From: Thermoanaerobaculia bacterium
Lineage (GTDB): Bacteria; Acidobacteriota; Thermoanaerobaculia; Multivoradales; UBA5704
DNA: 64,000 bases
Direction of reading: 5' to 3'
Assembly (NCBI GenBank): GCA_038248205.1
Contig: JBBRUC010000001.1
Span: 32,480 to 96,479 of the forward strand
Under the pieces are notes generated by a model. The model searched no databases. It had not been told where the DNA came from and saw only the letters and a program-made list of their open reading frames with translations. The translations under genes were made by a program, and so were the position numbers. Below are positions 16,739 to 36,318 of the stretch, one piece after another. How positions within the stretch are numbered: the stretch's first letter is position 1; each line of letters starts with the position of its first letter.

Positions 16739-17026
16739 GTGAATATTCGTCCCCTTCACGATCGGGTGGTCGTCAAGCGAATTGAGCAGGGTGAGCAGGT
16801 CCGCGGAGGCATCATCATCCCGGACACCGCCAAAGAAAAGCCGCAGGAGGCCGAGGTCGTGGCCGTGGGTCCGGGCAAACTGAACGACGAGGGCAAGCGG
16901 ATGCCGATCGACGTCAAGGCCGGCGACCGTGTGCTGATCGGCAAGTACTCGGGCAGCGAGATCAAGATCGATGGTGAAGAACTCGTCATCCTCCGCGAGG
17001 ACGAGATCTTGGCCGTGGTCGGTTAA
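16739..17026 (+). CDS. groES: Co-chaperonin GroES
   Basis: 95 aa reading [45 protein letters not shown], a canonical Cpn10 sequence. GTG start with AGGGAGG upstream. Confidence 0.95.
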
Positions 17027-17056
17027 CTCAACTCTACGACCTCAAGGAGGTTCTAA

Positions 17057-18712
<1,656 letters not shown>

Positions 18713-18758
18713 GACGCACTTCCCGAAGGGGCACCGCCCCTTCGTACGCTGCAAAAAA

Positions 18759-18791
18759 CGGCCGGCCCTTTCGGGGGCCGGCCGTTTCGTT
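18759..18791. terminator. Bidirectional rho-independent terminator between convergent groEL and the outer-membrane protein gene
   Basis: CGGCCGGCCC-tttc-GGGGGCCGGCCG hairpin, followed by TTTCGTT on the plus strand and preceded by AAAAAACG (a U-tract for the minus strand). A second hairpin, CGAAGGGGCACCGCCCCTTCG, lies at 18724..18744. Confidence 0.6.
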
Positions 18792-18815
18792 GGTGCGCCA
18801 GATTTGAAAGAGGTT

Positions 18816-19442
18816 CTAGAAGTGGGCGCGCAGGCCGAGATAGATCTTGGTCTGCAGGCTGGCCTGCGCGTCCTGGACGAGGTCGAAGCGGCCGGTGCCG
18901 AACGCGGAGACGTGCTCCGAGAGGAAGAGGTCGACACCGAACTGGGCGTCGACACCCACCTTGGTCTGGTCGCCGGACTCGCCCGGGTTGTCCTTGAGCA
19001 GCGCGGAATCGATCTGATGGAGCGCCGCGCCCGCGCCGAAGAAGGTCTCGATGTTGCCGAACGGAACCACGCCGATCAGATTCGCGCCAATCAAGAGGTC
19101 GCTCGCTTTGCCGTCGCCGCGCGCCTTCGAGGTCTCCCAGTAGCCGATTTCGGGCTCGACGTAGCCGCGAATCCCGCGGTCGGGCGAACCGTAGTCCTGC
19201 TCGTTCTTATGACCCGCGCGGATGCGCAACGAGGCGGTAAGGTACGGCTCGGTGAAACTGCCGTTCGAGGGTTCGACCAAGCCGACGCCGACGGACAGAG
19301 CGAACCGCTTTTCTTCTTTGTAGTCCGCATAGGGATCCCGGTTCGGATCGCCATCGCGGCTTTGCGGATCTTGAGCCCGCGCCGCCGCTGCGGGCAGCAT
19401 CAGGGTCGCGCCCACGGCTACCACGGTGAGCCATCGTTTCAT
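18816..19442 (-). CDS. Small outer-membrane beta-barrel protein (OmpA/OmpW-like transmembrane barrel)
   Basis: Signal peptide MKRWLTVVAVGATLMLPAAAARAQ, alternating amphipathic beta-strands, and a C-terminal aromatic residue (...YLGLRAHF). AGGAGGG Shine-Dalgarno before ATG 19442. Confidence 0.6.
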   Translation of the reverse strand: MKRWLTVVAVGATLMLPAAAARAQDPQSRDGDPNRDPYADYKEEKRFALSVGVGLVEPSNGSFTEPYLTASLRIRAGHKNEQDYGSPDRGIRGYVEPEIGYWETSKARGDGKASDLLIGANLIGVVPFGNIETFFGAGAALHQIDSALLKDNPGESGDQTKVGVDAQFGVDLFLSEHVSAFGTGRFDLVQDAQASLQTKIYLGLRAHF

Positions 19443-19534: not shown

Positions 19535-20026
19535 CTAGCAAAAAGCATCCCCCGTCGCTTTGGGGCTTACTTCACCCCCCGTTCGGATCAGCGGCGCGAA
19601 ACGCTCGGCGAGCGTCGGCGACTCTCCAATCGGCGTTCCGCGATGCTCCACCCAGGCGTGGGCGGCGAGAGCCGCGCCCTCTTTGCTCACCCCAAAACGG
19701 ATCTCGGTCTCGATCCCCTCCTCGGCAAGGAACGATTGGAGGGCGAGAGCCCGCGGAAGGCAAAGCATGGGGTAGAGATGGTGCCGCGCGGCGACGTCTA
19801 CCGCCCGGACCCAAAGAGCGAGGATCTCCGTTTCGCCACCCGGCGGAAACGAGCCGGGAGGGCGGCGAGCCGCGAAGCGGCTGGAAAGTCGCGCCGCAAC
19901 CCGAGAATATCCGAACAGGCGTAGGCGGAGATCGACCCCGGCGAGGCGCAGTATCGCGCGCAGCAGCCGGCGACGCTCAGGACCCGGGAGGGCGAGCCAT
20001 CGACGGGCGTCACGCGGGCGCCACAT
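19535..20026 (-). CDS. Lasso peptide biosynthesis B2 protein (transglutaminase-like leader peptidase)
   Basis: CLPRALALQSFLAEEGIETEIRFGV...ALAAHAWVE is the conserved Cys/His core of the lasso B2 (McjB C-terminal-domain) family. The start overlaps the B1 stop. Confidence 0.85.
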   Translation of the reverse strand: MWRPRDARRWLALPGPERRRLLRAILRLAGVDLRLRLFGYSRVAARLSSRFAARRPPGSFPPGGETEILALWVRAVDVAARHHLYPMLCLPRALALQSFLAEEGIETEIRFGVSKEGAALAAHAWVEHRGTPIGESPTLAERFAPLIRTGGEVSPKATGDAFC

Positions 20027-20309
20027 CGATCAGCCCATGGTCGAGCAGGTCGCGCACGAGATCCGTGAGATCCGAGCGCAACACCTCGACTTCGACCTTG
20101 TAATCGCTTTGCAGCCGCTCCAGCGTCTCGCCGAACGTCGAACCTTCGAGCCAAAGGGTCCAAGCCCGGGTGGCGACTTCGTTGAGGCCGTAATAGATCC
20201 CCCCCTCGACGTCGAGGACGACCATCTCACCCCCCAGCTCTCGGGCCAGCACGCCTTCACGGGGGCGAACGACGCTGTGCGGAAGAAGACCCAAGGTTGC
20301 GGTGGTCAT
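20010..20309 (-). CDS. Lasso peptide biosynthesis B1 protein (PqqD-like RiPP recognition element)
   Basis: MTTATLGLLPHSVVRPREGVLARELGGEMVVLDVEGGIYYGLNEVATRAWTLWLEGSTFGETLERL has the PqqD/RRE fold pattern. Start at ATG 20309; the track ORF has a 45-aa upstream extension. Confidence 0.8.
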   Translation of the reverse strand: MTTATLGLLPHSVVRPREGVLARELGGEMVVLDVEGGIYYGLNEVATRAWTLWLEGSTFGETLERLQSDYKVEVEVLRSDLTDLVRDLLDHGLIDVAPA

Positions 20310-20325
20310 GCGGAGAGGAAAATTA

Positions 20326-21276
20326 TCACAGCCCCTCAAGGTGCCCGAGAACCGCGGCACGGACCCGCGGCAGGTGCTCCAGTCCATTCGGATAGCGAAG
20401 ATGAAATACCGGAATCCGCTCGGCGACCCAGGCCAGGCGCTCAAACCGCCGACCTATGCCGATCGCCGCCTCGCCGAGCGCCCCGAGAAAGGAATGGCGT
20501 ACCAGTTCGATCATCGCCTCGCGGGGGGAGAGGCGTTCCATCTCGATCGTTGAACCTTCGCGCACCGGCAGGAACAGCGCGTCGAGCGGGCGCGCCGAAT
20601 CTTGAAACGTGCCGAGCCCTGCCCCGCCGACCGGCACCCGGCGCTTGTCGAAATCGGGATGCACCGGTTCAAGCTCGGTGGGATTTTCAACCAGATCATC
20701 CATCGATCTGGGCCAGAGGCGGAGCTGCGGAAAGCTCGGCGTGGCCACGATGGCGCCGAGAGAATCGACTTCCACGGCGAGCACGTCGTCGGTCAGAAGT
20801 GAAAAGCCCTCCGGAAGAAAGCTCGCGGCGAGACTGCTCTTGCCGGCTCGGTTGAAACCGAGAAAGCCGACTCCACCCAGAGGCGTGTCGACAGCGGAAG
20901 CGTGTAGGCAGAGAGCCCCCGAGATCTCCAGCCAGAGCGCGAGTACGATCCCCAAAAGGTAGGTCTCGGCCGAGGCGCAATCACCCTTTTGCCCGATCGA
21001 ATAGGCAATCCGTCCTCTCTCGACCCGGAACTCAATGCCCTCGACGAAGCGCAGTAGATGGTGGTCGCCCTCTCGAAAGGCGGTGAGCCAGCGCTCTGCT
21101 CCCTCCTCTAAGGATCCACTCTCAAAGAACGCTTCGGCTCGGCGGCCGGATCCTCGTTCGACCGCGGGGACGCGCTCGACCACGAGGTCGATTGAACCTT
21201 CGGATTGGGGCGCGACGAGTGTTTTGAGTGAAGGCTCGACGGAGACTCGGCGGCCGAAAAGGAGATAGGTGGGCAT
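20326..21276 (-). CDS. HPr kinase/phosphorylase-related kinase (lasso peptide precursor Ser-kinase type)
   Basis: Walker A FLGFNRAGKSSLAASF lies inside an HprK C-terminal-like domain. An HprK homolog inside a lasso cluster is the hallmark of paeninodin-type phosphorylated lasso peptides. Confidence 0.75.
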   Translation of the reverse strand: MPTYLLFGRRVSVEPSLKTLVAPQSEGSIDLVVERVPAVERGSGRRAEAFFESGSLEEGAERWLTAFREGDHHLLRFVEGIEFRVERGRIAYSIGQKGDCASAETYLLGIVLALWLEISGALCLHASAVDTPLGGVGFLGFNRAGKSSLAASFLPEGFSLLTDDVLAVEVDSLGAIVATPSFPQLRLWPRSMDDLVENPTELEPVHPDFDKRRVPVGGAGLGTFQDSARPLDALFLPVREGSTIEMERLSPREAMIELVRHSFLGALGEAAIGIGRRFERLAWVAERIPVFHLRYPNGLEHLPRVRAAVLGHLEGL

Positions 21277-21309
21277 TCGATCGGCAGATTCTGGAGCTGG
21301 CTCGGCGAA

Positions 21310-22995
21310 TCAATGGAAATGCAACCTCAGCCAAGCCTCTAGGGTCAGGCTATACCAGAACAGCGCTTCGTTCGTGGCGCCGGCCTGGTACCGCTCGTAC
21401 GCCCGGCGCAGCGGAGCTTCTTCGACGAAACCCATCCGGGCGGCGATCATGTCGGTACAAAGGTCCAACGCCTGCTTCTGCTCTCGCTCCCGCAAACCGC
21501 GATCGAAGATCGGGGTCGGATAGGTCTTTCCCAGGCGCTCGACCTCCGGGGCCGGAAGCAGACCCGCGAGCGCATTGCGAAGAACGAGCTTCGGCGACCC
21601 GGCACGATAGGTCTGATCCGAAGGAAGCGACGCCGCAAGCTCGAACAGCCGATGATCGAGCCAGGGGTGGCGCAGCTCGATGCCGTGCTCCGCCGCCTGC
21701 TCGGTCGCCTGGGCGGCAACGGCGCGCAGCAAGGGGTCGCGCAGAATCTCCAGCCGGCGGCGACGCCCGGGCAAGAGGGTTCGAGGGATTTCGGGGAACG
21801 CGGGCGGGGCGACCCCTCGCAGGCGAGGTCCAAGCCACTCAGGAGGCGAATCGGAAGATCGCCGAGGCATCAGGAACCGCGCGATCGGGCCGAGAGTTTG
21901 GAAACGCAGGAGCCAATACCAGTCCACCCCGAACTGGCGCCGATGGCTCAGCAGGCCCTGGGTCAGGCGCAGCCAATGGCCCTGCCAGAACAGGTCCGAA
22001 TAGGAGACGACATTGCCTCCGACCAGATGGTCGCCGCTCAAGCCCGACAGGAGAACACGAATTCCTTCCGATCGAACGGTTCGGAAGGTCTCGTCCCAGA
22101 GCGAGGAGTAGGAGTTGGCGAGCGGACTCCCAGGCGGAAGCCGCGGCGGACGACGGAGCGTCCACTCCTGATCGGCCGCGATCAGCACTTGCCGCAGGCC
22201 GAGCGCGCGGCAAACGTCGGCGGCCAGAGCACTCTCGTCGGCTTCCGGTAGCTCGGGGCTCGCCCACGAAAACGCCAGCAGGCTCGAAGCCGGAACCGTT
22301 TGCCGCGCCGCCGCGGCCACCGCCGTGGAGTCGAGGCCGCCGCTTACGGTAACTCCGCACGGCTCCTCCGGCAGGTATTCGGCGACCACCGAGAGCAGAC
22401 GGTCACGAAAAGCCTCGGCGTATTCCCCATCGGACCCAAGTCGCAAGGTTGAGATTGCCTCGGGTCGCCAGTAGACCCGCGTCTCAAGACGGGAAGAGTC
22501 GGCGATCAGGACGGCTCCGGCGTCGAGGGCGTGAATGTCACGATAGAAGGTCTCGCCGGGATCCGGCACGGCGCCGCAGATTTGGCGGGCCACTGAGGTC
22601 TCGTTGAGCGCCGGAGTCTGGTCGGCGAACAGGTCCTCAATTCGATCGGAAAGGGCGAGGAGATCGCCGCGCAGCGTGAAGTAAAGAGAATTCGCCCCCA
22701 GTCGATCACGTAAAACGTACAAACGGCGACGAGGACCATGCCACAAAATCCAGGCACAGGGCCCGGCAATGAGACGCGCCGCGTCCAGAGGTTCGCGCGA
22801 GCAGGCGCGAACGAGCAGCATAATATCGCTCTCTAGAGGATCGGCCCCGAAAGCATCAATCAGCTCTTTTCTATTCGCAATGAAGCCGGAAAACCAGAGG
22901 CATCGAATCGCGTCGTACCCGACTCCATCGGGCGCCGCGCGGCTTCTGTGCCATCGAACCAAGGAACTTTGAAAAGCCGCCGAGGCAACGGACAT
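21310..22995 (-). CDS. Lasso peptide isopeptide-bond-forming cyclase (asparagine synthetase B-like; C protein)
   Basis: PP-loop SGGLDS and an AsnB C-terminal-domain-like pattern. The track ORF begins with TTG at 23091 and would overlap the candidate precursor. ATG 22995 (MSVASAAF...) gives a 22-nt gap after the precursor stop and is preferred. Confidence 0.8.
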   Translation of the reverse strand: MSVASAAFQSSLVRWHRSRAAPDGVGYDAIRCLWFSGFIANRKELIDAFGADPLESDIMLLVRACSREPLDAARLIAGPCAWILWHGPRRRLYVLRDRLGANSLYFTLRGDLLALSDRIEDLFADQTPALNETSVARQICGAVPDPGETFYRDIHALDAGAVLIADSSRLETRVYWRPEAISTLRLGSDGEYAEAFRDRLLSVVAEYLPEEPCGVTVSGGLDSTAVAAAARQTVPASSLLAFSWASPELPEADESALAADVCRALGLRQVLIAADQEWTLRRPPRLPPGSPLANSYSSLWDETFRTVRSEGIRVLLSGLSGDHLVGGNVVSYSDLFWQGHWLRLTQGLLSHRRQFGVDWYWLLRFQTLGPIARFLMPRRSSDSPPEWLGPRLRGVAPPAFPEIPRTLLPGRRRRLEILRDPLLRAVAAQATEQAAEHGIELRHPWLDHRLFELAASLPSDQTYRAGSPKLVLRNALAGLLPAPEVERLGKTYPTPIFDRGLREREQKQALDLCTDMIAARMGFVEEAPLRRAYERYQAGATNEALFWYSLTLEAWLRLHFH

Positions 22996-23017
22996 CCGAG
23001 GGGAGACGGGACGAAAA

Positions 23018-23248
23018 TCAGCTCCGGGTGCCTTTTCCGGGGTCGGGTTTGCTATTCGCTCGAGAACCGAAGAAACCGTCTGGATTGCCAAAGTTTCCCG
23101 CCGCCTGCGTCAATCCGGAAAGGTCTCCGAAAACGATCAATCGCGGACTGGAATAGGCGCTCCGGGCGGTCCACGGACGGTCGGCAAATGTCTCAGAGTC
23201 CACTGACTCTCGCATATTTGCATATCGATCGGACCGAGGCTCGACCAT
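23018..23248 (-). CDS. Candidate lasso peptide precursor (A peptide)
   Basis: 76 aa: MVEPRSDRYANMRESVDSETFADRPWTARSAYSSPRLIVFGDLSGLTQ / AAGNFGNPDGFFGSRANSKPDPGKGTRS. Thr sits at leader position -2 (LTQ). The core starts with Ala and has Asp at position 9 (a 9-residue macrolactam, as in paeninodin AGPGTSTPD) and ends in Ser. GGGGG Shine-Dalgarno before ATG 23248. Located immediately upstream of the cyclase. Codons are AT-richer than the genome average. Confidence 0.55.
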   Translation of the reverse strand: MVEPRSDRYANMRESVDSETFADRPWTARSAYSSPRLIVFGDLSGLTQAAGNFGNPDGFFGSRANSKPDPGKGTRS

Positions 23249-23400
23249 TTACCTAACCCCCATCGTGTAATTGCTAAGGAAGCGCCCTTGCTCCGGGGGC
23301 TGCTTTTTACCAAAGGATCTCTCCGAGTATAGCAGAGGCCGCTATAGGTCAAAGCAAAGGCCCTGCCAAGGAGCCAGACGGCGGCGCCGGAGTCTCCCTC

Positions 23401-23430
23401 AAAAAAAATGAGCCCGGGAAACCCGGGCTC
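23401..23430 (-). terminator. Rho-independent terminator downstream of giant gene 1
   Basis: GAGCCCGGG-aaa-CCCGGGCTC hairpin, followed on the minus strand by TTTTTTTT. A second perfect 10-bp hairpin, GGTCGGCGCC-aa-GGCGCCGACC, lies at 23452..23473. Confidence 0.65.
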
Positions 23431-23487
23431 GCGAAACTTCGATAAAGAGAGGGTCGGCGCCAAGGCGCCGACCTTCTCAAAGTCAAC

Positions 23488-26400
23488 CTAGTTGCGATGC
23501 GGTGCGCAGAGCAACCCGTTGTTGTAGTCGTCGAGCATCTCGTGCCACGGCGAGGCCTGATTCCAAGCCGAGCTGCTGCCGCGTACGTTGCTGCCGACCG
23601 GGTGGGTCTTCAGCCAGTTGTCGGCAGAGGTGATGATCGAGTCGATGCAGCTCGAGACGTTGCCGACCAGAACGTTCAACTTGGCCGCGATCAGCTGTTT
23701 GGCCAAATCGATCGTCTTGTCGCCCTTGCTCGGGGTGCCGAGAAGCGAGATCGCCTGGGAGACCGAGTAGGTCTTGTTGCCGATCTTGATGCTCTCGACC
23801 GGCCAGGCGCTCGCGTGGTTCTTCCAGTAGCCGATCGTGCCGGTACCCGGCGCCGGAGTGGTCGGCGGGCACTGGACGATGTCGACGTTGATGTCGCCTT
23901 GACCGGTGGTGGGCAGGGAGCCTCCCGAAGAGGGCTGCGTGACCACCGTCCACTTGTACCAACCGGAGGCCCCGTAGTTAAGGTTCTTGCCGTTGGCACC
24001 GACGCCGAGCTGGAACGCCGGCCCGGTGCGGGTGACGTTGATCACCGCGCCGCTGTTGCTGCTGAGTCCGGTCAGGGTTCCGTTGTACCCGGTGTAGTAG
24101 ATCCAGGTTCCCGTGTTGACCGGGCCGCCGTTCTCCGAGTAAGCCGAAGCCATGAGTTCCTTCTTCGGGCTACCGGCGGGGGTGACGGTCGTCCGGCCGG
24201 TGAAAGTGATGCTCACCGTCCAGGCGTTCAACGAGTTGGACAAGCTGCGCAACGTACCGTTCATGTTCGCCGTGCCGTTCGAGTTCTGAATGAACGAGCC
24301 CGGGGCCGGAGTGAACTGGTAATCGGTACCGATGCCCGGGAGCCAGAAGGCATGATTGGCTCCAGCGCCTTGGACCGACGGATCGTTGATCGCTTCGTCC
24401 ACACACTGCGGGTTATTGCTCGGGGAGTTGTAGCCGAAGTCTACGTCGAGCTTCGACTGACCGGCCGCGAGAGCGAACGCCGTGGTGTTCGCCGTGCCGA
24501 TGCCGTCGAGATCGTAGGTCTGCACATAGCCGGCCGGAACGGTCATCACGTCGACCGTCACCGTGTAGTTGCCGGAGAGCAGGTTCGAGAACAGGTAGTT
24601 CCCGTCACCGCTCGTGGTTACGACAGCGACCACGTTGCCGGAGCTGTTGCGCAGCACCACGTCGACGCCGTTGATTCCGAGCTCACCGGCGTCCTGAATG
24701 CCGTCGGCGTCGGTATCGGTCCAGACGCGGTCGCCGACCGAGGCCGTACCGCGGTAGCCGAAGTCAACGTTGAAGTTCGACTGATTGGCCGCGAGAGCGA
24801 CCGTCGCCTTGTTCGGGGTGCCCAGGCCATCGAGATCGTAGGTCTGGGTCAAACCTGCAGGCAGGGTAGAGGTGACGACCTGCACTGAGTAGGTGCCGGC
24901 CAGGAGGTTCTGGAACTGGTAGAGGCCGTCGCCCGCCGTGACCTTGGTGGCGATGACGTTGCCACCGGCGTCGAGCAGGTTGACGGTGACTCCGTTGATG
25001 CCGACTTCGAGCAGGTCCTGCGCGCCGTCGCCGTCGGAATCGATCCAGACCCGGTCACCGATCGAGCCGGTGCCGCGATAGCCGAAGTCGACGTCCGTAC
25101 GATTCTGGCCTCCGGTGATCGAAGCGGCGGCGATGTTCGCCGTCCCGGTTCCGTCGAGATCGTAGGTCTGGGTGAGGCCGGCGGGCAGCGTCGAAGACTC
25201 GACGCGGACCGAATAGCTTCCGGCCGCCAGGTTGGTGAAGGTGTAGTTACCGTCGCCACTGGTAATCGCCGTCTGGAGGACGACGCTACCTGAGCTAAGG
25301 AGCGAGACCGTGACGCCGTTCAGGCCGGACTCGCCGGGATCCTGGACGCCGTTGCCGTTGGTGTCGATCCACAGCCGGTCGCCGATCGAGCCGGTGCCGC
25401 GATAGCCGAAGTCGACGTCGTCGCGTTCCGCCTGAGCGAGCGTAAGCGTGGTGCTCGCGATGTGCGGGGTGGCAATTCCATCGAGATCGAACGTCGGGGC
25501 AAGACCCGCGGGCAGCGTCGAGGTCGCGACGCGGACCGAGTAGCTACCGAGCGGCAGATTGGCGAAGTTGTAGTTGCCGTTGCCGCTCGTCGCGGTGGTG
25601 GCAATGACGTTGCCGCCGTTGTCGAGCAGATCCAGGGTGACGCCGTTGATGCCGGACTCACTCGCGTCCTGGAGGCCATCGCCGTTTTCGTCGAGCCAGA
25701 TACGGTCGCCGATCGCGCCGACGCCCTTGTATCCGAAGTCGGCGTCGGTCCGGTTCTGGCCGGGGCCGAGCATCAGGTCGGTGAAGTTGACCGACGAGAT
25801 CCCGTCGAGGTCGTAACTCGCGGCGAGGCCGGCGGGCAGCGTTGCCGCTTCGATCCGCACCGAGTAGTGGCTCGACGGCAGGTTACCGAACGTGTAGTCG
25901 CCGTCGCCGCTGGTCACCCGGGTCGCCAAGACGTTGCCGCCCTGGTCGAGCAAGGAAACCGTGACGCCGTTGATCCCGTTTTCACCGGCATCTTGGATGC
26001 CGTCGGCGTCGAAGTCGAGCCAGACACGGTCGCCGATCGAGCCGGTACCGCGATAGCCGAAGTCGACGTCGGTCCGGTTCTGGCCGCCGATCAGGCCGAC
26101 CACGGCAAAGTTCGCCGTGCCGATGCCATCGAGGTCATAGGAGGGAACCAGACCGGTCGGGAGGGTGGCGGCTTCGACCCGCACGGCGTAGGAACCGCCC
26201 GGGAGGTTGCCAAAGGTGTAGTTGCCGTCGCCCGCGGTGAGCTGCGAGGCGATGACGTTGCCGCCGCTGTCGAGCAGTGTGACCGTGACGCCGTTCAAGC
26301 CGGCCTCACCGCCGTCCTGGATGCCGTCGTTGTTGAAATCGAGCCAGAGACGATCACCGATCGAGCCGGTGCCGCGATAGCCGAAGTCGACGTCGGCCCG

Positions 26401-29358
26401 GTTCTGGCCGCCCGCGAGGCTCGCCGCGGCGAGGTTCGCCGAGCCGATGCCGTCGAGGTCGTAGGTGGGCGCAAGGCCCGCCGGGAGAGTCGCCGCCACC
26501 ACCCGTACGGAGTAGTTGCCGGCGGGGAGATTGGCGAAGGTGTAGCCGCCGTCTCCGGCGGTTACCTGGGTCGCGAGAACGTTGCCGCCGTTGTCGAGAA
26601 GCTCCACAGTGACGCCGTTGATTCCGGCCTCCCCGGCGTCCTGGACGGTATCGGCGTCGAAATCGAGCCAGACGCGATCACCGATCGAGCCGGTGCCGCG
26701 ATAGCCAAAATCCACGTCGATCCGGTTCTGACCACCGGCCAGAGCGAACAAGGCGATGTGGGCCGTGGCGATGCCGTCGAGGTCGTAGGTCGGAGAGACT
26801 CCCGCCGGCAGGGTGGCCGAGACGACCCGGACCGAGTAGTTGCCCACCGGGAGGTTGGAGAAGGTGTAGTTGCCGTCGCCCGAAGTCACCTGCGATGCGA
26901 CGACGGTACCGCCGGAATTCAAAAGCTCGACGGTGATGCCGTTGAGCCCTGCTTCACCGCCGTCTTGGACGCCGTCGGCGTTGAAATCGAGCCAAACGCG
27001 ATCACCGACCGAAGCCGTGCCGCGATAGCCGAAGTCTACGTCCATCCGGCTCTGTCCGCCGATCAAGGAGACCGAAGCGACGTTGGCCGAGGCCAGACCG
27101 TCGAGGTCGTAGGTCTGGACCGAGCCGGCCGGAAGGGTCGCTGCCGCCACACGCACCGAATAACTTCCGGCGTTCAAGTTCGAGAAGGTGTAGTGGCCGT
27201 CGCCCGAGGTCACCTGGCTCGCGATGACGTTGCCGCCGTTGTCGAGCAACTCGACGGTGACGCCGTTGATGCCGGTCTCGCCGACACCCTGCAAGCCGTT
27301 GCCGTCGGCGTCGAGCCAAACGCGATCGCCGAGCGAACCGGTGCCGCGGTAGCCGAAGTCGACGTTGGTTTTGTTCTCGGCGGCCGCAAGAGAGAAGCTC
27401 GCAATGTTGGCCGAGCTTGTACCGTCGAGATCGAAGGTCGGGGCAACTCCCACCGGAAGGGTAGAGGTTACGACCCGCACCATGTAGCTGCCGGCGGCTA
27501 GATTGTCGAACAGATAGTCGCCGTCGCCGGTCGTTACCTGCGTGGCCAAGACGTTGCCGCCGTTGTCGAGGAGTTCGAGGGTGACGCCATTGATGCCGTT
27601 TTCGCCGCCATCCTGAATGCCGTCGCCGTTGGTGTCGAGCCAGACCCGGTCGCCAACCGAGGCGTCGTTGGCAGCCCCTTCGGAATAACCGAAGTCATAG
27701 GTGAGGACGTTGCCGTTGGTGAGCGTACGGGTGAGCGATTCGCCGCCCGTCGTCGAGGACTTACCCTCCAACGGCTGGCCGGGACCGAAGTTGCTCGCCG
27801 CGACCCGTACTTCATACGTTCCCGGCGAGTCCATGCCGAAGCAGTAGAGGCCGTTGGTGTCGGTACCCGTGTTGTTGGCTACGCACGCCGACCAGTTCGG
27901 GCTCGAAGTCTCGCCCGTGGTGGCCGTAGCGATCACCGATCCGTCGCTCGGACGGACCAGCTCCATCAGAACGCCCGGAATGCCCGCTTCACTCGGATCC
28001 AAAACACCCGGATTCGCTGTGTCCGCCCAGACGAAATCACCCAACAGATAGATCGATTCGTCCGAGCAGGCCGCCACGCGCGGCACATCGTCAGGATCCT
28101 CACCCGGGATCGGGGCGCGGGCCGGTCGCGTCGCACAGGTGTCCGCGAACCAGAAGTTCAGATTCGCGAGGTCCAAACCGATAATCGTGACTTTCCACAT
28201 ACCCGAGGGAAGAGTCGCGCCGCCGTAGACCCAATCCGCATCGCCGGCGAACGGCGAATTGATGCTCGCGATCAGGAACTGCTCCCATTCGAAGCTGCCC
28301 GAGGGGTTATCGTTGAAATAGATGTTGCCGTCCGGATCCGTCACTTCGTAGCGGACGCAGCCGATCCGGTTCGGATCGCCGGGCTCGCCGCGGCGGAAGG
28401 CATCCAAGTTGTTGTCATCCGGCGGTACGCCAGGGCCTTGGACCCCTTCCGGGTTGGCACCGGCGGTCGAGAAGGGGAAGCCGCTGTAGTCGGCGGCGGT
28501 ATCGAAGTCGTCCTCGTCCTCGCACGGATCGAGCGCCACGCCCGAGGGAGAGCCCACGGTCGAATTGGTACCGAAATCGAAGTCGCCGTCGAACATACGG
28601 AGTTCGGTTTCGCCGCCGGGCAGGGTGAAGAAGAACTCGAACGTGCCGTCGTAGGTCGTCGGCGCGGTGAGGAATCCGCCCGGGGGCGGAAACGTGCCCG
28701 GGTAAAGAATCGGGCCGTCGTTGAACAGCTGACGGAACGCGCCAACCAGGCCGAACTGCGGAGTACGGAAGGTCATCGGGTTCGAGGCCGCGACCTTGAT
28801 GTTGCTCTCAAGAACCTCGCCCGGGGCGCACGAGCCGTCGAGGCCGATCACCAAGTTATAGAAGTAGTTGCCGCTGGGCGCCTGGGCAATGGCCCCGTTT
28901 GTGACCGTCACAGCCCACCAATCGTTGTCGGGCATGGCGGCTGAGCTGGAAGTCCAGAGCGGCCCACTCGTCGGATTGACTCCGTTGCCGGTCCAGGTGC
29001 CGATCAGGTTGGCGGGGGCGGTGCTGCCGGTGCGCAGCGGATCCGCATAGAGGGAGTAGATGAGCTGGCGGGAGCCGGCGTCCCAATGCGGACGCGCGGC
29101 GCCATCGGCCATGCCGGTGTCGCCATCGAAGATGTTGACGTCGAACGTCGGGACCGACGCAGGCGCCGCCATGGCAATCTGGACGTTCTGCTCGAACGTC
29201 GCGATGCCGGCGCAACCGAAGCCCATGAAGCGACCGTCGGTGGCGCTTTCCGAGGGAAACGCCGCGAACGGCCCCGGTCCGATCTGAGCCCTCGCAGCGC
29301 CAAGGGCCGTCAGGGCCAGTAGCGCCAAAGTAGCGCACCTACTGTAAAACCTTCTCAT
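23488..29358 (-). CDS. Giant secreted repeat protein 1 (about 1956 aa): conserved N-terminal domain, about 11-12 SdrD-B/Cna-B-like Ca-binding repeats, one X repeat, conserved C-terminal domain
   Basis: Signal peptide MRRFYSRCATLALLALTALGAARAQ, with GGAG before ATG 29358. The roughly 600-aa N-terminal domain is shared with the two downstream paralogs. Tandem roughly 103-aa repeats read GDRVWLDxNGNGxQDxGExGINGVTVxLL...SGDGNYTFxNLPAGxYSVRV...LPAG..PTYDLDG...DVDFGYR, matching SdrD B-domain/Cna-B-like repeats with DxDxDG Ca sites. One roughly 200-aa Cys-bounded X repeat follows. The C-terminal domain GYWKNHASAWPV...LLCAPHRN is nearly identical in gene 2. Confidence 0.8.
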   Translation of the reverse strand: MRRFYSRCATLALLALTALGAARAQIGPGPFAAFPSESATDGRFMGFGCAGIATFEQNVQIAMAAPASVPTFDVNIFDGDTGMADGAARPHWDAGSRQLIYSLYADPLRTGSTAPANLIGTWTGNGVNPTSGPLWTSSSAAMPDNDWWAVTVTNGAIAQAPSGNYFYNLVIGLDGSCAPGEVLESNIKVAASNPMTFRTPQFGLVGAFRQLFNDGPILYPGTFPPPGGFLTAPTTYDGTFEFFFTLPGGETELRMFDGDFDFGTNSTVGSPSGVALDPCEDEDDFDTAADYSGFPFSTAGANPEGVQGPGVPPDDNNLDAFRRGEPGDPNRIGCVRYEVTDPDGNIYFNDNPSGSFEWEQFLIASINSPFAGDADWVYGGATLPSGMWKVTIIGLDLANLNFWFADTCATRPARAPIPGEDPDDVPRVAACSDESIYLLGDFVWADTANPGVLDPSEAGIPGVLMELVRPSDGSVIATATTGETSSPNWSACVANNTGTDTNGLYCFGMDSPGTYEVRVAASNFGPGQPLEGKSSTTGGESLTRTLTNGNVLTYDFGYSEGAANDASVGDRVWLDTNGDGIQDGGENGINGVTLELLDNGGNVLATQVTTGDGDYLFDNLAAGSYMVRVVTSTLPVGVAPTFDLDGTSSANIASFSLAAAENKTNVDFGYRGTGSLGDRVWLDADGNGLQGVGETGINGVTVELLDNGGNVIASQVTSGDGHYTFSNLNAGSYSVRVAAATLPAGSVQTYDLDGLASANVASVSLIGGQSRMDVDFGYRGTASVGDRVWLDFNADGVQDGGEAGLNGITVELLNSGGTVVASQVTSGDGNYTFSNLPVGNYSVRVVSATLPAGVSPTYDLDGIATAHIALFALAGGQNRIDVDFGYRGTGSIGDRVWLDFDADTVQDAGEAGINGVTVELLDNGGNVLATQVTAGDGGYTFANLPAGNYSVRVVAATLPAGLAPTYDLDGIGSANLAAASLAGGQNRADVDFGYRGTGSIGDRLWLDFNNDGIQDGGEAGLNGVTVTLLDSGGNVIASQLTAGDGNYTFGNLPGGSYAVRVEAATLPTGLVPSYDLDGIGTANFAVVGLIGGQNRTDVDFGYRGTGSIGDRVWLDFDADGIQDAGENGINGVTVSLLDQGGNVLATRVTSGDGDYTFGNLPSSHYSVRIEAATLPAGLAASYDLDGISSVNFTDLMLGPGQNRTDADFGYKGVGAIGDRIWLDENGDGLQDASESGINGVTLDLLDNGGNVIATTATSGNGNYNFANLPLGSYSVRVATSTLPAGLAPTFDLDGIATPHIASTTLTLAQAERDDVDFGYRGTGSIGDRLWIDTNGNGVQDPGESGLNGVTVSLLSSGSVVLQTAITSGDGNYTFTNLAAGSYSVRVESSTLPAGLTQTYDLDGTGTANIAAASITGGQNRTDVDFGYRGTGSIGDRVWIDSDGDGAQDLLEVGINGVTVNLLDAGGNVIATKVTAGDGLYQFQNLLAGTYSVQVVTSTLPAGLTQTYDLDGLGTPNKATVALAANQSNFNVDFGYRGTASVGDRVWTDTDADGIQDAGELGINGVDVVLRNSSGNVVAVVTTSGDGNYLFSNLLSGNYTVTVDVMTVPAGYVQTYDLDGIGTANTTAFALAAGQSKLDVDFGYNSPSNNPQCVDEAINDPSVQGAGANHAFWLPGIGTDYQFTPAPGSFIQNSNGTANMNGTLRSLSNSLNAWTVSITFTGRTTVTPAGSPKKELMASAYSENGGPVNTGTWIYYTGYNGTLTGLSSNSGAVINVTRTGPAFQLGVGANGKNLNYGASGWYKWTVVTQPSSGGSLPTTGQGDINVDIVQCPPTTPAPGTGTIGYWKNHASAWPVESIKIGNKTYSVSQAISLLGTPSKGDKTIDLAKQLIAAKLNVLVGNVSSCIDSIITSADNWLKTHPVGSNVRGSSSAWNQASPWHEMLDDYNNGLLCAPHRN
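24430..27700 (-). repeat. Tandem array of about 11 near-identical ~309-bp coding repeats (SdrD-B-like modules) inside giant gene 1; coordinates approximate
   Basis: Recurrent DNA strings such as GTCGCCGATCGAGCCGGTGCCGCGATAGCCGAAGTCGACGTCGG and GACGCCGTTGATGCCG recur with roughly 309-bp periodicity across this span. These are coding repeats, not CRISPR. Confidence 0.7.
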
Positions 29359-29701
29359 AACTCCATTCCCTTTCCCCGGCCAAAAGCATCGCCACGAAGG
29401 CGGGCGCGTCCGGTGCCCCAATGTTGCCGGGTGGGGGCCACCGAACCTCCAATCAAGTAGTCCGCTGCCAAAAATTGCGCAGCGCGAGAGCCAAAGATCG
29501 TCAGTCAACCCTTCGTAAGAGCAAAAAGGCAGTTCCATCTACGGCAAGTAGGAAACGACTCTTCCAAGACTGAGCGCCACATTGGGCTCGATGTTTTGGA
29601 CAGGCGGCACCCTTTGCCCTTCCGTTCAGTCGTTTAGTTGTTTAATGGGAACTTGATGGTTCCCGGGGCGGCTAAGACAATCCGCACTGTAACGAAAGGA
29701 C

Positions 29702-29945: not shown

Positions 29946-32900
29946 CTAGTCGCGGTGCGGAGCGCAGAGCAACCCGTTGTTGTAGTCGTCGAGCATGTTG
30001 TGCCACGGCGAGGCCTGAGACCAGGCCGAGCTGCTGCCCCGGACGTTGCTGCCGACCGGATAGGTCTTCAGCCAGTTGTCCGCCGAAGTGATGGTCGCGC
30101 TGATGCAGCTCGACACGTTTCCGACCAGGACGTTCAACTTGGCCGCGATCAACTGCTTGGCCAAATCGATCGACTTGTCGCCCTTGCTCGGCGTGCGGAG
30201 CAGGTTGATCGCCTGAGAGACCGTGTAGGTCTCGTTACCGATCTTGATGCTGGTGACCGGCCAAGCGCTCGCGTGGTTCTTCCAGTAACCGATCGTACCG
30301 GTGCCCGGAGCGGGCGTGGTCGGCGGGCACTGGCCGATGTCGACGTTGATGTCGCCCTGGCCGCTGGTCGGCAGAGCCGAGCCCGACGTCGGCTGGGTCA
30401 CCACCGTCCAGTTCAGCCAGCCCGAACCGCCGTAGTGGAGGTTCTTGCCGTTGGCGCCCGTGCCCACCTGGAACGCCGGACCGACGCGCACCAGATTGAG
30501 CTTGGCACCCGCGGCGCTGCCGGTTCCCGTGAGGGTACCGGTGGCACCCGTGTAGTAGTACCAGGTGGCAGTCTTGATCGGACCGCCGTTCTCGCTGTAG
30601 GCGCTTGCCGCAAGCTCCTTCTTCGGGTTGCCGGCGGGAGCCGTCGTGGTGAAGCCCGAGAAGGTGACGTCCACCGCGAAGCCAAAGTTCGGGTTCGAGG
30701 TGCTTACCAGGGTGCCGGTCAAACGGGCTGTACCGTCGGCCTTCTCGACCAACGAGCCGTTGCCCGGTGAGAAGACGAGATCGGTCGAAATGCCCGGCAG
30801 CCAGATCGCGTGATGGGCGCTCGTTGCGTTGACCGACGAATCGTTGTCGGCCTTGTTGGCGCACTGCACGCAGTCGAAGATGTCGAGGTTGATGTCGCCT
30901 TGGCCGGTCGAGGGATAGCTGCTGCCCGAGGGCTGGGTCGCCGTCCAATGAATCCAGCCGGACGCCCCATAGTGGAGGTTCTTGCCGTTGGCGCCGACGC
31001 CCACTTGGAACGACGGACCGACGTTGGTGATGCTCAAGACGACGCCGGCATTGCCGTCGATGCCCGTCAAGACTCCGCCGAGGTAGCCGTAGTAGCGCCA
31101 GGTGGCCGGATCGATCGGTCCGCCGTTATTGACGTACGCGCTCCCGGCGAGTTCCTTCTTCGGGTTGCCCGGCCCCGGGGTCGTGGTGCGGGCGAAGAAG
31201 TTGATAGCGACCGTGAAGGCGTTGTTCGGATTCGACTGGCTCCGCATCGTACCGGTCAGCGTTGCCGAGCCGTCCGCCTTCTCGAGGAAGGCGCCAGGGT
31301 CGGGGGTGAAGGAGTAGTCGGTGCCGATACCGGGCAGCCACAACGCGTGATTGGCCGCGCTGCCGTTGTACGCCGGATCGTTGTTAGCCTGGTTGGCGCA
31401 GCTCTTCGCGTCGGTCTTGGACTGGTAGCCGAAATCGACGTCGGAGCGGTTCTGGCCCGCAGCCAGTGCCACCGTCGCGCGATGGGCGGTTCCGAGACCA
31501 TCCAGGTCGTAGGTTTGAACGTAACCGGCCGGAAGCGTCGCGCTTTCGACCCGCACCGAGTAGCTACCGGCCGGCAGATTGCCGAACAGGTAGTTGCCGT
31601 TGCCCGAAGTCACCTGGCTGGCGAGGGCGTTGCCACCCGTGTCGAGCAATGTGACGGTGACGCCGTTGATCCCGGCCTCGCCGCCGTCCTGCACCCCGTT
31701 GCCGTTGGCGTCTTCCCACACCCGATCGCCGATCGTCCCTTGCCCCCTGTAGCCAAAGTCGACGTCGGTCCGGTTCTGACCGCCGGTTAAAGCAGCCGTC
31801 GCGATGTGAGCGGTGCCGACTCCATCCAGGTCGTAGCTCGGAACGAGCCCCGCCGGAACGGTCGCCGATTCAACACGGACTTTGTACGTCCCCGCCGGAA
31901 GGTTCGCGAAGGTGTAGTTGCCGTTGCCCGTGGTCACCTGGGTCGCCAGGGCCACGTTGGCAGAGTTGAGGAGAGTAACGGTGACGCCGTTGATCCCGAC
32001 CTCGCCGCCGTCCTGCACACCGTTGGCGTTGAAATCGAGCCAGACCCGGTCACCGAGCGAGGCCGTACCCCGATAGCCGAAGTCCACGTCGGTCCGGTTC
32101 TGAGCCGCCGTCAACGAGGCCGCCGCCGTATGCGGAGTGCCGATCCCGTCGAGGTCGTAGCTCGGGGCCAGACCCGCCGGCAGCGTTGAGGAAACCACCC
32201 GGACCGTATAGTTGCCGGCCGAGAGGTTGGTGAAGTTGTAGGTGCCGTCACCCGACGTCACCTGGGAAGCCACCACGGTGCCGCCGGAATTCAGCAGCTC
32301 GACCGTCACGCCGTTGATCCCGACTTCGCCGCCGTCCTGCACCCCATTGGCGTTGAAATCGAGCCAGACCCGATCGCCGAGCGAGGCCGTGCCCCGGTAG
32401 CCGAAGTCCACGTCCGTCCGGTTCTGTCCCGCCGCCAGAGCGAACGAGGCGCTGTTCGCCGTCCCGAGGCCGTCCAAATCGAACGTCGCTGCCAAGCCTG
32501 CGGGAAGGGTCGCCGGAACCACCTCGACCCGATAGGTACCCGCGACGACGTGGGCGAAGGTGTAGATCCCGTCGCCAGCCGTCACCTGGGTCTCGACGGT
32601 CACGCCGTGCACAGTGTCCACCAAGCGAACCGTCACGCCGTTGATGCCGGTTTCGCCCGCATCCTGGACGCCGTTGCCGTTCGTGTCGTTCCAAACCCGG
32701 TCACCGATCGAGCCGTAGCTGACCGGCGGGCACTCGAACAGGTCGAGGTTGATGTCGCCCTGGCCCGAGCCGACGAGGGTCTCGCCGCCCGACGGCTGGC
32801 TCGTCACCTGCCACTGGTACCAACCCGAGCCACCGAAGTGGAGGTTCTTGTTGTTGGCGCCGACTCCCAGCTGGAAGGCCGGTCCGGTGCTGGAAATCGA

Positions 32901-35900
32901 GATCGAGCCGCCCGCATAGGCGCTCACCCCGACCAGGGTTCCCGAGTAGGACGTGTAGTAGCTCCAGCTCGCCGAATCCGCCACGCCGCCGTTCTCGACG
33001 TAGGCACCAGCGGAAAGCTCCTTCTTCGGGCTGCCCGGAGGAGTGGTCGCGGTGTAGCCCGAGAACAGGATGTCCACCTGGAACCCGTGGGTCGGGCTCG
33101 AAAGGCTGTACATCGTTCCCGTCAGGTGCGCCGTGCCGTCCGCGTTGCGAACGAACGTGCCGTCGACCGGACTGAACTGGAAGTCGGTACCGATCCCCGG
33201 CAGCCAGAACGCGTGGTTGTACGTCGAGCCCAAAACCGCGGGATCGTTGTTGGCGTTGTTTGCGCAGGACGAGCAGTTGCCGAAGTCGACGTTGATGTCA
33301 CCCTGGCCGGACTGCGTGAGCGCCGGACCGCTCGCGGGCTGCGAGGTGACGTTCCACACGAACCAGGCCGACGCCCCGTCGAGCAGGTTTTTGTTGTTGG
33401 CACCCGTGCCGAGCTGGAAGGCGGAGCCGGTGTTGGAAATGCCGATCACCGATCCGGCATACGCATCGATGCCGGTGAGCGTACCGGTGAAGCTCGTGTA
33501 GTACGTAAACGTCGCCGTGTTGACGGGTCCGCCGTTTTCCGAATAGGCGTTTCCGGAGAGCTCTTTCTTCGGGCTGCCCGGAGGAGCCGTCGCGGTCAAG
33601 CCGCTGAGCACCACGTCGACGACGAAGGCCTCGCTCGAATTCGCCGTCCGCCGCACGATGCCCGTCAGGCGAGCGGTTCCGTCCGCCCGCTGTACGAAGC
33701 TGCCGGTCGCCGGAGCGAACTGGAAGTCCAAACCGATGCCGGGCAGGTAGAACGCGTGCCCATCCGGGTTGCTGCCGTAGGCCGGATTGTTGAACGAGCC
33801 CTGCGCGCAGGTCTCGGTGTCGTGCGTGCGATAGCCGAAATCCACGTCGGTGCGATTCTGACCGGCGGCCACGGTGGCCGTTGCCCGGTGCGGTGTCGCG
33901 ACACCGTCGAGGTCATAGGTCGGGCCGAAGCCGGCCGGCAACGTGGTCGAATCGACCACCACCGTGTAGCTTCCGGCCGCCAGGTTGCCGAAGGTGTAGT
34001 TGCCGTCGCCCGAGGTCACCTGCGTCGCGACGACCGTGTTGGTCCCGTCGAGCAGGCGAACGGTGACGCCGTTGATCCCAACCTCGCCGGCATCCTGCAC
34101 ACCGTCGCCGTCGAGATCGCTCCAGACCCGATCGCCCAAGCTGCCGGGCGCCGGAGGCTGCCGGTAGCCGAAATCCACGTCGGTCCGGTTCTGCGACTGC
34201 GCGAGAGCGAAGCTCGCGATGTTCGCCGTACCGGTGCCGTCCAGGTCATAGGTCTGGGCCAAGCCCGCGGGCAGCGTCGCGGTCACCACGCGAACCGAGT
34301 AGTTGCCGGCCGCCAGGTTGTCGAACAAGTAGTTGCCGTTCCCCGAGGTGATTTGGCTGGCCACGACGTTGCCGCCGTTGTCGAGCAGATCAACCGTGAC
34401 GCCGTTGATGCCGTTCTCCCCGCCATCTTGAACGCCGTCGCCATCGGCATCGAGCCAGATCCGGTCGCCGACCGAGGCGTCGTTCGTCGCCGCCTCGGCG
34501 TAACCGAAGTCATACGTTAGCTCGTTGTCGGCCGAAAGCGTTCGGGTGAGCGACTCGCCGCCCGTCGTCGAGGACTTACCTTCCAACGGCTTGCCCGGGC
34601 CGAAGTTGCTTGCCGCGACCCTCACCTCGTAGGTGCCGGGAGCGTCCATGCCGAAGCAGTAGAGACCGTTGATATCGGTTCCCGTGTTGTTCGCCACGCA
34701 CGCCGACCAGTTCGGGCTCGTCGTGTCGCCCGTCTTGGCCGTAGCGATCACCGATCCGTCGCTCGGACGAACCAGCTCCATCAGAACGCCCGGAATGCCC
34801 GCTTCGCCCGGATCCAACACGCCCGGGTTTCCGGTGTCCGACCAGACGAAATCGCCTATCAGGTAGATGGATTCATCCGAACAAGCCGCCACGCGCGGAA
34901 CGTTGTCCGGATCTTCCCCCGGGATCGGATCGCGGGCCGGGCGCGTCGCACAGGTGTCCGCGAACCAGAAATTCAGATTCGCTAGGTCCAGCCCGATGAT
35001 CGTGACTTTCCACATCCCCGAGGGAAGCGTCGCGCCGCCGTAGACCCAATCCGCATCGCCGACGAACGGCGAATTGATGCTCGCGATCAGGAACTGCTCC
35101 CACTCGAAGCTGCCCGAGGGGTTGTCGTTGAAATAGATGTTGCCGTCTGGATCCGTCACTTCGTAGCGGACGCAGCCGATCCGATTCGGATCGCCGGGCT
35201 CGCCACGGCGGAAGGCATCCAAGTTGTTGTCATCAGGGGGAATACCGGGGCCTTGGACCCCTTCGGGGTTGGCGCCGGTGGTCGAGAAGGGGAAGCCGCT
35301 GTAGTCGGCGGCAGTATCGAAGTCGTCCTCGTCCTCGCACGGATCGAGCGCTACGCCGGAAGGCGAGCCGACGGTCGAGGCGGTACCGAAATCGAAGTCG
35401 CCGTCGAACATCCGCAGCTCGGTTTCTCCGCCGGGAAGAGTGAAGAAGAACTCGAACGTGCCGTCATACGTGGTCGGCGCGGTGAGGAACCCGCCCGGGG
35501 GCGGGAAGGTACCGGGATAGAGAATTGGACCGTCATTGAAGAGCTGACGAAACGCGCCAACCAGACCGAACTGCGGAGTCCGGAAGGTCATCGGGTTCGA
35601 GGCCGCGACCTTGATGTTGCTCTCAAGAACCTCGCCCGGGGCGCACGAGCCGTCGAGGCCGATCACCAAGTTATAGAAGTAGTTGCCACTGGGCGCCTGG
35701 GCAACGGCCCCGTTGGTGACCGTCACGGCCCACCAATCGTTGTCCGGCATGGTGCTTGAGCTGGAAGTCCAGAGCGGCCCACTCGTCGGATTGGCTCCGT
35801 TGCCGGTCCAGGTGCCGATCAGATCGGCCGGCGAGGTACTGCCATTGCGCAACGGGTCCGCATACAGAGAGTAAATGAGCTGGCGATTGCCGACGTCCCA

Positions 35901-36182: not shown

Positions 36183-36318
36183 CCGATCACCCTTTCTCCG
36201 ATGGTCCAAAAGACTTCGCGCGCTTTCCGAACTGCCGCCCGACAAGACTCGCAAACCTAAGTAAAACCAAGAGTTTGGCCTGGAACTACCCGCTTGTAGG
36301 GTGATCTTTTTCGGCGAT

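Follow-up and report, generated by a model that had tools for sequence, protein, structure and literature searches.

Lasso peptide clusters that carry a kinase are already known. In those of paeninodin and pseudomycoidin, both from Bacillota, split B1 and B2 proteins occur together with an Asn-synthetase-like cyclase and a kinase of the HprK type (PadeK and PsmK, respectively) that has the catalytic residues His-Lys-Asp-Asp. Clusters of the paeninodin type follow the gene order C-A-K-B1-B2-D and include an ABC transporter and a nucleotidyltransferase. The ring of paeninodin is closed between an N-terminal Ala and an inner Asp, and an Ala1-Asp9 ring is documented for pseudomycoidin (PMC6993621). 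The phosphosite of the paeninodin family is the C-terminal Ser, a residue described as extremely conserved (PMC9266682); all kinases characterised before BsfK modify a C-terminal Ser (PMC9266682, PMC6993621). BsfK, from the bsf cluster of Bradymonas sediminis, phosphorylates instead a non-terminal residue, Ser3 of the precursor BsfA (PMC10368454).

Here we describe a related locus in a 64 kb stretch of DNA (the window) from an uncultured metagenome-assembled genome (MAG) of Thermoanaerobaculia (Acidobacteriota). A lasso peptide precursor is very probably encoded by a 76-codon open reading frame at 23018..23248 (minus strand), the first gene of a six-gene operon. The peptide is predicted to be of class II because its core has no Cys. 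The product is an ordinary addition to a known class, previously unannotated; in the literature searched, no paper mentions both lasso peptides and Thermoanaerobaculia.

The locus shares with the paeninodin and pseudomycoidin clusters the split B1/B2 pair, the cyclase type, the kinase with its His-Lys-Asp-Asp set, a long hydrophilic tail on the peptide and a precursor ending in Ser; its predicted ring, from Ala1 to Asp9, would also be of the same kind. The first-pass annotation drew the parallel with the paeninodin core, which reportedly starts AGPGTSTPD. The window locus differs from the paeninodin type in its host phylum, in its gene order (A-C-K-B1-B2-OMP, where OMP is an outer-membrane protein gene), in having neither ABC transporter nor nucleotidyltransferase, and in that the C-terminal Ser is not conserved across its family. 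With the bsf system it has in common a homologous kinase of identical catalytic spacing, a YxxPxL leader, a G-N-x-x-D-G ring end and a Pro/Gly/Asp-rich tail; unlike it, the window cluster has no D or N genes. Four points are modestly new: no terminal-Ser rule holds across the family, its members share a conserved Asp-x3-Gly-Ser/Thr motif, the genes are arranged A-C-K-B1-B2-OMP, and the closest subfamily has a long hydrophilic tail.

A compact six-gene operon

The cluster is complete and compact, with all six genes on the minus strand. Downstream of the precursor gene, after a gap of 22 nt, lies the lasso cyclase gene (C, 21310..22995, 561 aa). Its product matches PF00733 (E 5e-38), has NF033535 (lasso cyclase) as its best NCBIfam match, at 190 bits, and contains an SGGLDS PP-loop motif. 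It is 100% identical to an NCBI MAG protein, and its nearest relatives come from MAGs of Thermoanaerobaculia (Acidobacteriota).

Next follow the gene of an HprK-like lasso precursor kinase (K, 20326..21276, 316 aa) and that of B1, a PqqD-type RiPP recognition element (20010..20309, 99 aa). The B1 gene is counted from Met46 of the mechanically called ORF, at which residue the alignment of its relatives begins; the protein exceeds the cutoff of PF05402 with 53.8 bits and also matches NF033536 and NF033530. B2, the leader peptidase, is a transglutaminase-like cysteine protease (19535..20026, 163 aa), recognised by PF13471 (E 4e-20) and by NF033537 (lasso_biosyn_B2), where its 67.4 bits pass the curated cutoff of 33. 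The genes of C, B2 and B1 thus adjoin the precursor downstream on its own strand, as is looked for in the neighbourhood of a lasso precursor. The last gene (18816..19442, 208 aa) encodes a secreted, beta-barrel-like outer-membrane protein.

The operon is bounded downstream by the convergent groES-groEL pair (groES 16739..17026 and groEL 17063..18712, both on the plus strand; PF00118 for GroEL, E 1e-78). Upstream, a terminator scan found two hairpins resembling intrinsic terminators (23410..23473, minus strand), both kept in relatives, which end the gene of a 2016-aa SdrD_B-repeat surface protein and separate it from the lasso operon. Domain searches detected neither an ABC exporter nor an isopeptidase in the cluster, and no ABC transporter is encoded between groEL and the upstream surface-protein gene.

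A 637-aa ORF on the minus strand at 17042..18955, rich in Arg, Ala, Asp and Gly, was considered as a conserved cluster neighbour and rejected: it is the antisense shadow of groEL, and its apparent conservation beside lasso clusters comes from groEL synteny.

Further upstream, the giant surface protein (23488..29538, minus strand, 2016 aa) is one of a tandem pair with a second of 2102 aa (29946..36254, minus strand); the two carry SdrD_B, CarboxypepD_reg and SpaA-like repeats.

The precursor and its family

Our translation of the 76-aa ORF, from an ATG to a stop codon at 23018..23020, is identical to that of the first-pass annotation: MVEPRSDRYANMRESVDSETFADRPWTARSAYSSPRLIVFGDLSGLTQAAGNFGNPDGFFGSRANSKPDPGKGTRS. 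Its leader of 48 residues (23105..23248, minus strand) ends in AYSSPRLIVFGDLSGLTQ, an exact fit to the leader recognition motif YxxPxLx3Gx5Tx defined in PMC10368454, with Tyr at -17, Pro at -14, Leu at -12, Gly at -8 and Thr at -2. When all six frames of the 64 kb window are translated, the pattern Y..P.[LIVMF]...G.....T. occurs once, in this ORF; with 0.18 expected per mononucleotide shuffle, the signal exceeds chance. Cleavage after Gln48 puts Thr at -2, Ala at core position 1 and Asp at core position 9, and leaves Ser as the last residue, all as first described; the predicted core of 28 residues (23021..23104, minus strand) is AAGNFGNPDGFFGSRANSKPDPGKGTRS.

The window peptide matches the curated precursor profile NF033528 (lasso_cyano) over residues 30-60 (E 8e-6), with 25.7 bits against a curated cutoff of 33; by this measure it is related to the cyanobacterial subfamily of NF033528 and is not a member of it. 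Neither exact look-up nor a word-based homology search of limited sensitivity matched the 76-aa peptide in the protein collections, and it is not on record as a called gene in those searched. Two ORFs overlapping it (22948..23256, plus strand, and 23137..23463, minus strand) have no Pfam match, and an Rfam scan of 22800..23700 returned nothing near threshold.

Searching with the cyclase, we gathered 20 loci from genomes, 80 from metagenomes and 1 exact-protein locus. The related set comprises the 41 of these with a cyclase identity of 34% or more; they belong to Thermoanaerobaculia, other Acidobacteriota and Chloroflexota. The first-pass annotation had proposed to look for the small ORF in homologous clusters, and it is indeed conserved: 39 of the 41 loci have one with matching leader spacing, and with few exceptions it immediately precedes the cyclase gene. 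For the two others, the available sequence begins inside the cyclase match or lacks the part upstream of it.

When 32 precursors are aligned (alignment A2), Tyr, Pro and Gly-8 are invariant, and four further positions are at least 90% conserved: Leu-12, Thr-2, the Asp that serves as ring acceptor and, at acceptor+4, a Gly. The next position, acceptor+5, is Ser or Thr in 30 of the 32, which completes a conserved Asp-x3-Gly-Ser/Thr motif; in the window peptide it is Ser14. The closest relative (locus L001) has a cyclase 71% identical and a peptide 56% identical over 75 aa, with a dN/dS of 0.30 in the precursor frame.

Relatives of the precursor are already recognised by the NCBI annotation pipeline PGAP, which named one of them 'lasso RiPP family leader peptide-containing protein'. 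At E <0.01, 22 of the 32 family members match NF033528 and 22 match a second precursor model, NF033521 (lasso_leader_L3). A full HMMER scan of 1.84 billion representatives added three called peptides with nine-residue x-x-G-x-x-x-N-(P/K)-D-G rings.

In some Chloroflexota relatives, three or four tandem precursor genes precede a single cyclase gene (L016, 4763..5775; L039, 786..1728).

The kinase and its candidate phosphosites

The 316-aa protein matches TIGR04352 and TIGR04355 weakly and is 27% identical to BsfK over 211 aa (E 2e-9). Its catalytic motif is intact: residues H125, G140, G145, K146, S147, D163 and D164 are spaced identically to those of BsfK between H148 and D187, where mutagenesis showed the residues to matter (PMC10368454). 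All 49 kinases in the alignment keep the His, the Lys and both Asp, and in each of them the Lys is followed by Ser or Thr. On these grounds we consider its assignment as a kinase sound. A PDB sequence search with the protein returned only noise, and a single-sequence AlphaFold2 model reached a mean pLDDT of 34 and was unusable.

The target of this kinase is less clear-cut. The first-pass annotation held that the C-terminal Ser of the peptide fits the presence of a precursor kinase. This argument does not carry over to the family: a kinase homolog occurs in almost every related cluster with enough flanking sequence, yet a terminal Ser is found in just 7 of 42 distinct cores (Ser or Thr in 16) and is missing from the four closest ones, their ends being ...DDTPR, ...RPRQG, ...GISRG and ...PGPTR. 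The terminal Ser of the window peptide may thus be a coincidence, and the rule that a kinase implies a C-terminal phosphosite is not transferable to this clade.

Nor does the peptide resemble a BsfK substrate. BsfA, with Ile and Ser at the two positions concerned, agrees with the pattern of the BsfK type (Ile/Val at -2, Ser/Thr at core 3); in the window peptide the residue at -2 is Thr, and the ring, AAGNFGNPD, has Gly at position 3 and no Ser or Thr at all.

At the family level, the better candidate would be Ser14, the residue at acceptor+5. We favour it as the phosphosite with somewhat less than even confidence. The rule it would follow is not absolute, because one relative (L014) has no Ser or Thr anywhere after its ring.

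In the precedent-based alternative, which keeps the same precursor, the kinase would act on the linear form at its C-terminal Ser28 and phosphorylate or polyphosphorylate it, following the examples of paeninodin, pseudomycoidin, ThcoA and SyanA; this was the view of the first-pass annotation. The window peptide does end in Ser, the kinases known before BsfK all act on such a residue (PMC9266682, PMC6993621), many cores of the family end in S, T or G, and their tails are rich in Ser and Thr. Against this stand the few Ser-ended cores (7/42) and the ends of the closest four, R, G, G and R, despite a kinase that is 62% identical in each of their sufficiently covered loci. The terminal Ser is described as extremely conserved in the paeninodin family, unlike here, and BsfK sets a precedent for other target positions. 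Phosphorylation at Ser28 therefore seems rather doubtful to us. It is likewise unlikely, if still to be reckoned with, that the phosphate is carried elsewhere or that the peptide is not phosphorylated.

Returning to Ser14, a more speculative extension would make this Thermoanaerobaculia/Chloroflexota family a third regiochemical class of kinase-tailored lasso peptides: its HprK-like kinase would phosphorylate the conserved Ser/Thr at acceptor+5, in the loop or plug region and not at the C-terminus or ring position 3, where the phosphate at acceptor+5 would perhaps lock the thread, and export would perhaps proceed via the small outer-membrane beta-barrel instead of an ABC transporter. We put this forward tentatively, as the less probable outcome. 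If Asp-x3-Gly-Ser is a real target, the chemistry of phosphorylated lasso peptides would be wider than described and a kinase of new regioselectivity would become available for peptide engineering.

Peptide start, cleavage site and ring

The peptide ORF contains a second in-frame ATG, Met12 (23215). Translation from there would give a leader of 37 aa and leave the mature product unchanged. Met12 is also kept in L001 (YANMRE), and the leaders of many relatives measure only about 25-30 aa. However, a GGGGG lies 8 nt upstream of the first ATG, with nothing similar to a Shine-Dalgarno sequence before Met12, and L001 and L021 share at the protein level both the first Met and an N-terminal M-x5-(D/H)-x-YA block. 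An internal start is accordingly improbable, and the first ATG (23248) is the favoured start of the peptide.

The pathway can be proposed by analogy with characterised systems. B1 would bind the leader. The HprK-like kinase, probably assisted by B1 as in the bsf system, would then phosphorylate a Ser of the linear precursor. B2 would cleave after Gln48, with Thr at -2, and the Asn-synthetase-like cyclase would adenylate Asp9 and join its side chain to the amine of Ala1, around a tail of 19 residues.

Cleavage after Gln48 (...LTQ) is predicted because the spacing of the leader is fixed, and the acceptor was placed by alignment. The cores of the five closest precursors read AAGNFGNPDGFFGSR... 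(window), AAGQFGKPDGLFGSR..., AAGFFGAPDGAFGSR..., NAGNRGR-DPLTGSR... and SGGSVVF-DGVTGSR..., so that rings in this family should be 8- or 9-membered. In 32 relatives the acceptor is Asp in 90% or more of the sequences, and most of them would have 8-membered rings; in the window peptide the acceptor falls at position 9. An Ala1-Asp9 ring is thus the best reading of the predicted product. Its monoisotopic mass would be 2790.322 Da, or 2870.289 Da with one phosphate, and Phe11, Phe12 and Arg15 are candidate plug residues in the predicted threaded form.

The first-pass annotation offered a seven-membered Gly1-Asp7 ring, following cleavage after ...TQAA, as an alternative. Gly3, which would become the first residue, is invariant in the five closest precursors, and Gly is the commonest first residue of known lasso peptides. 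The shift would, however, move Thr to -4 and Tyr, Pro and Leu to -19, -16 and -14, breaking the spacing fixed in the family. Most relatives, L002 and L021 among them, have the acceptor at position 8 and would be left with 6-membered rings, below the known range of 7-9. We consider this alternative very improbable and retain the Ala1-Asp9 ring.

The core of 28 aa had been described as at the long end for lasso peptides. It is long, and still within the published range, which includes peptides of 30 and 33 aa (PMC13352647). In most relatives the core has 16-19 residues, and outside the closest subfamily it ends 3-5 residues past the conserved Gly-Ser. The extra length of the window peptide comes from a hydrophilic C-terminal extension with a GSRxxSxPxPG pattern, 12-17 residues long, that is present only in the five closest precursors (the window, at 23021..23062 of the minus strand, L001, L002, L021 and L023).

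Start of the cyclase gene

A mechanical ORF call extends the cyclase to a TTG at 23091 (21310..23091, minus strand, 593 aa), which makes it overlap the peptide ORF; an in-frame ATG exists at 22995. The first-pass annotation had noticed this conflict and preferred the ATG. The overlap is real and amounts to 74 nt counting the stop codon, not 73 as given before.

The homologs and the stop codons of relatives decide for the ATG. None of the 28 homologs in alignment A1 has a counterpart to the 32 residues between TTG 23091 and ATG 22995; the conserved longer N-terminus that would have spoken against the peptide was thus looked for and not seen. The closest cyclases start 8-10 residues before a block (L/V)(V/I)RW(H/D), for example MIFAPVAVRSRVIRWH and MPAVFSSRVIQWH, and so does the window cyclase when read from ATG 22995: MSVASAAFQSSLVRWH. 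In L023 the cyclase ATG comes directly after the precursor stop codon, in L001 an in-frame TGA stands immediately 5' of the cyclase start, and in L021 the cyclase frame is closed by the precursor's own stop. Overall, a stop keeps the cyclase frame out of the precursor gene in 24 of 39 loci, among them the six closest (at least 61% identity). There is no obvious Shine-Dalgarno sequence 5' of ATG 22995. With the cyclase beginning at this ATG, the precursor and cyclase genes do not overlap.

That the small ORF is a product of chance and the cyclase is translated from TTG 23091, 32 residues longer at its N-terminus, is scarcely credible: the frame is open back to the TTG and the small ORF has no frame-specific GC3 signal, but the extension lacks counterparts in the homologs and any Pfam match, in-frame stops exclude one in those 24 of 39 loci, and the small ORF is conserved, under a dN/dS of 0.30, together with its leader motif. 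GC3 is equal in all three frames over the peptide ORF (0.57-0.59) and as low in the first 100 cyclase codons, so composition is uninformative on the coding status of the small ORF.

The public record has the opposite fault: there the identical cyclase (P0001, 503 aa) begins at MLLVRACS, 58 residues past the homolog-supported ATG, and is without the conserved N-terminal RWH...CLWFSGFIANR block. Two annotation errors in the MAG are corrected in this way: a precursor that was not called, and a cyclase that was either too long (from TTG 23091) or, publicly, 58 residues too short.

Outer-membrane protein gene and upstream DNA

The outer-membrane protein has a signal-peptide-like N-terminus, MKRWLTVVAVGATLMLPAAAARAQ, and matches PF13505 below the cutoff (E 1e-3); a PDB sequence search with it gave only noise. 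A homolog is found beside or inside the lasso cluster in 11 loci (L001, L002, L004, L006, L007, L020, L022, L025, L026, L028 and L029), and in L006 it sits between B1 and B2. The gene is possibly cluster-associated, and as a beta-barrel-like outer-membrane gene it is the only candidate for an export or immunity component.

Two blocks upstream of the precursor gene, both on the minus strand, may be promoter elements. The first, GCCTCTGCTATACT (23326..23339; TGnTATACT), resembles an extended -10 element and is nearly invariant, with one substitution in L021, in a four-way alignment of otherwise diverged intergenic DNA. A sigma-70 scan requiring two hexamers at 16-18 nt spacing reported no promoter, this block included.

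The second, TGGCAGGGCCTTTGCT (23353..23368; TGGCAG-N5-TTTGCT), resembles a sigma-54 -24/-12 element. It is the sole match in the window to TGGCACG-N4-TTGCW with at most one mismatch, where 0.33 are expected, and it is conserved in L001, L023 and partly in L021. More distant loci lack it, and the family as a whole shows no enrichment of such blocks ahead of its precursor genes, with matches in 4 of 39 loci, of which two are weak. We therefore treat it as a weak lead and not as a finding. Both blocks are conserved only among the closest relatives.

Base composition and distant clusters

The segment around the precursor had been called locally AT-rich. It is so to a modest degree: between about 22700 and 23500 the GC content is 0.56-0.60, and the neighbouring genes have 0.61-0.71. 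The frequent A/T-ending codons noted in the peptide ORF are borne out by a GC3 of 0.58, compared with 0.71-0.72 in the cyclase, kinase and B2 genes. GC3 rises to 0.83-0.89 in the flanking genes, which encode the outer-membrane protein, GroEL and the upstream giant protein. The low GC3 of the lasso genes as a group (19535..23248, 0.58-0.72) relative to these flanks is consistent with horizontal acquisition or with low expression.

Beyond the related set, distant kinase-linked clusters (L044, L045, L048, L049 and L051) have a cyclase about 30% identical. Their precursors, such as YAKPRLIEYGSVAKLTQ/GTRTKQADTPAAGFRRVCL, likewise do not end in Ser, and positions 2 and 4 of their rings are Thr.
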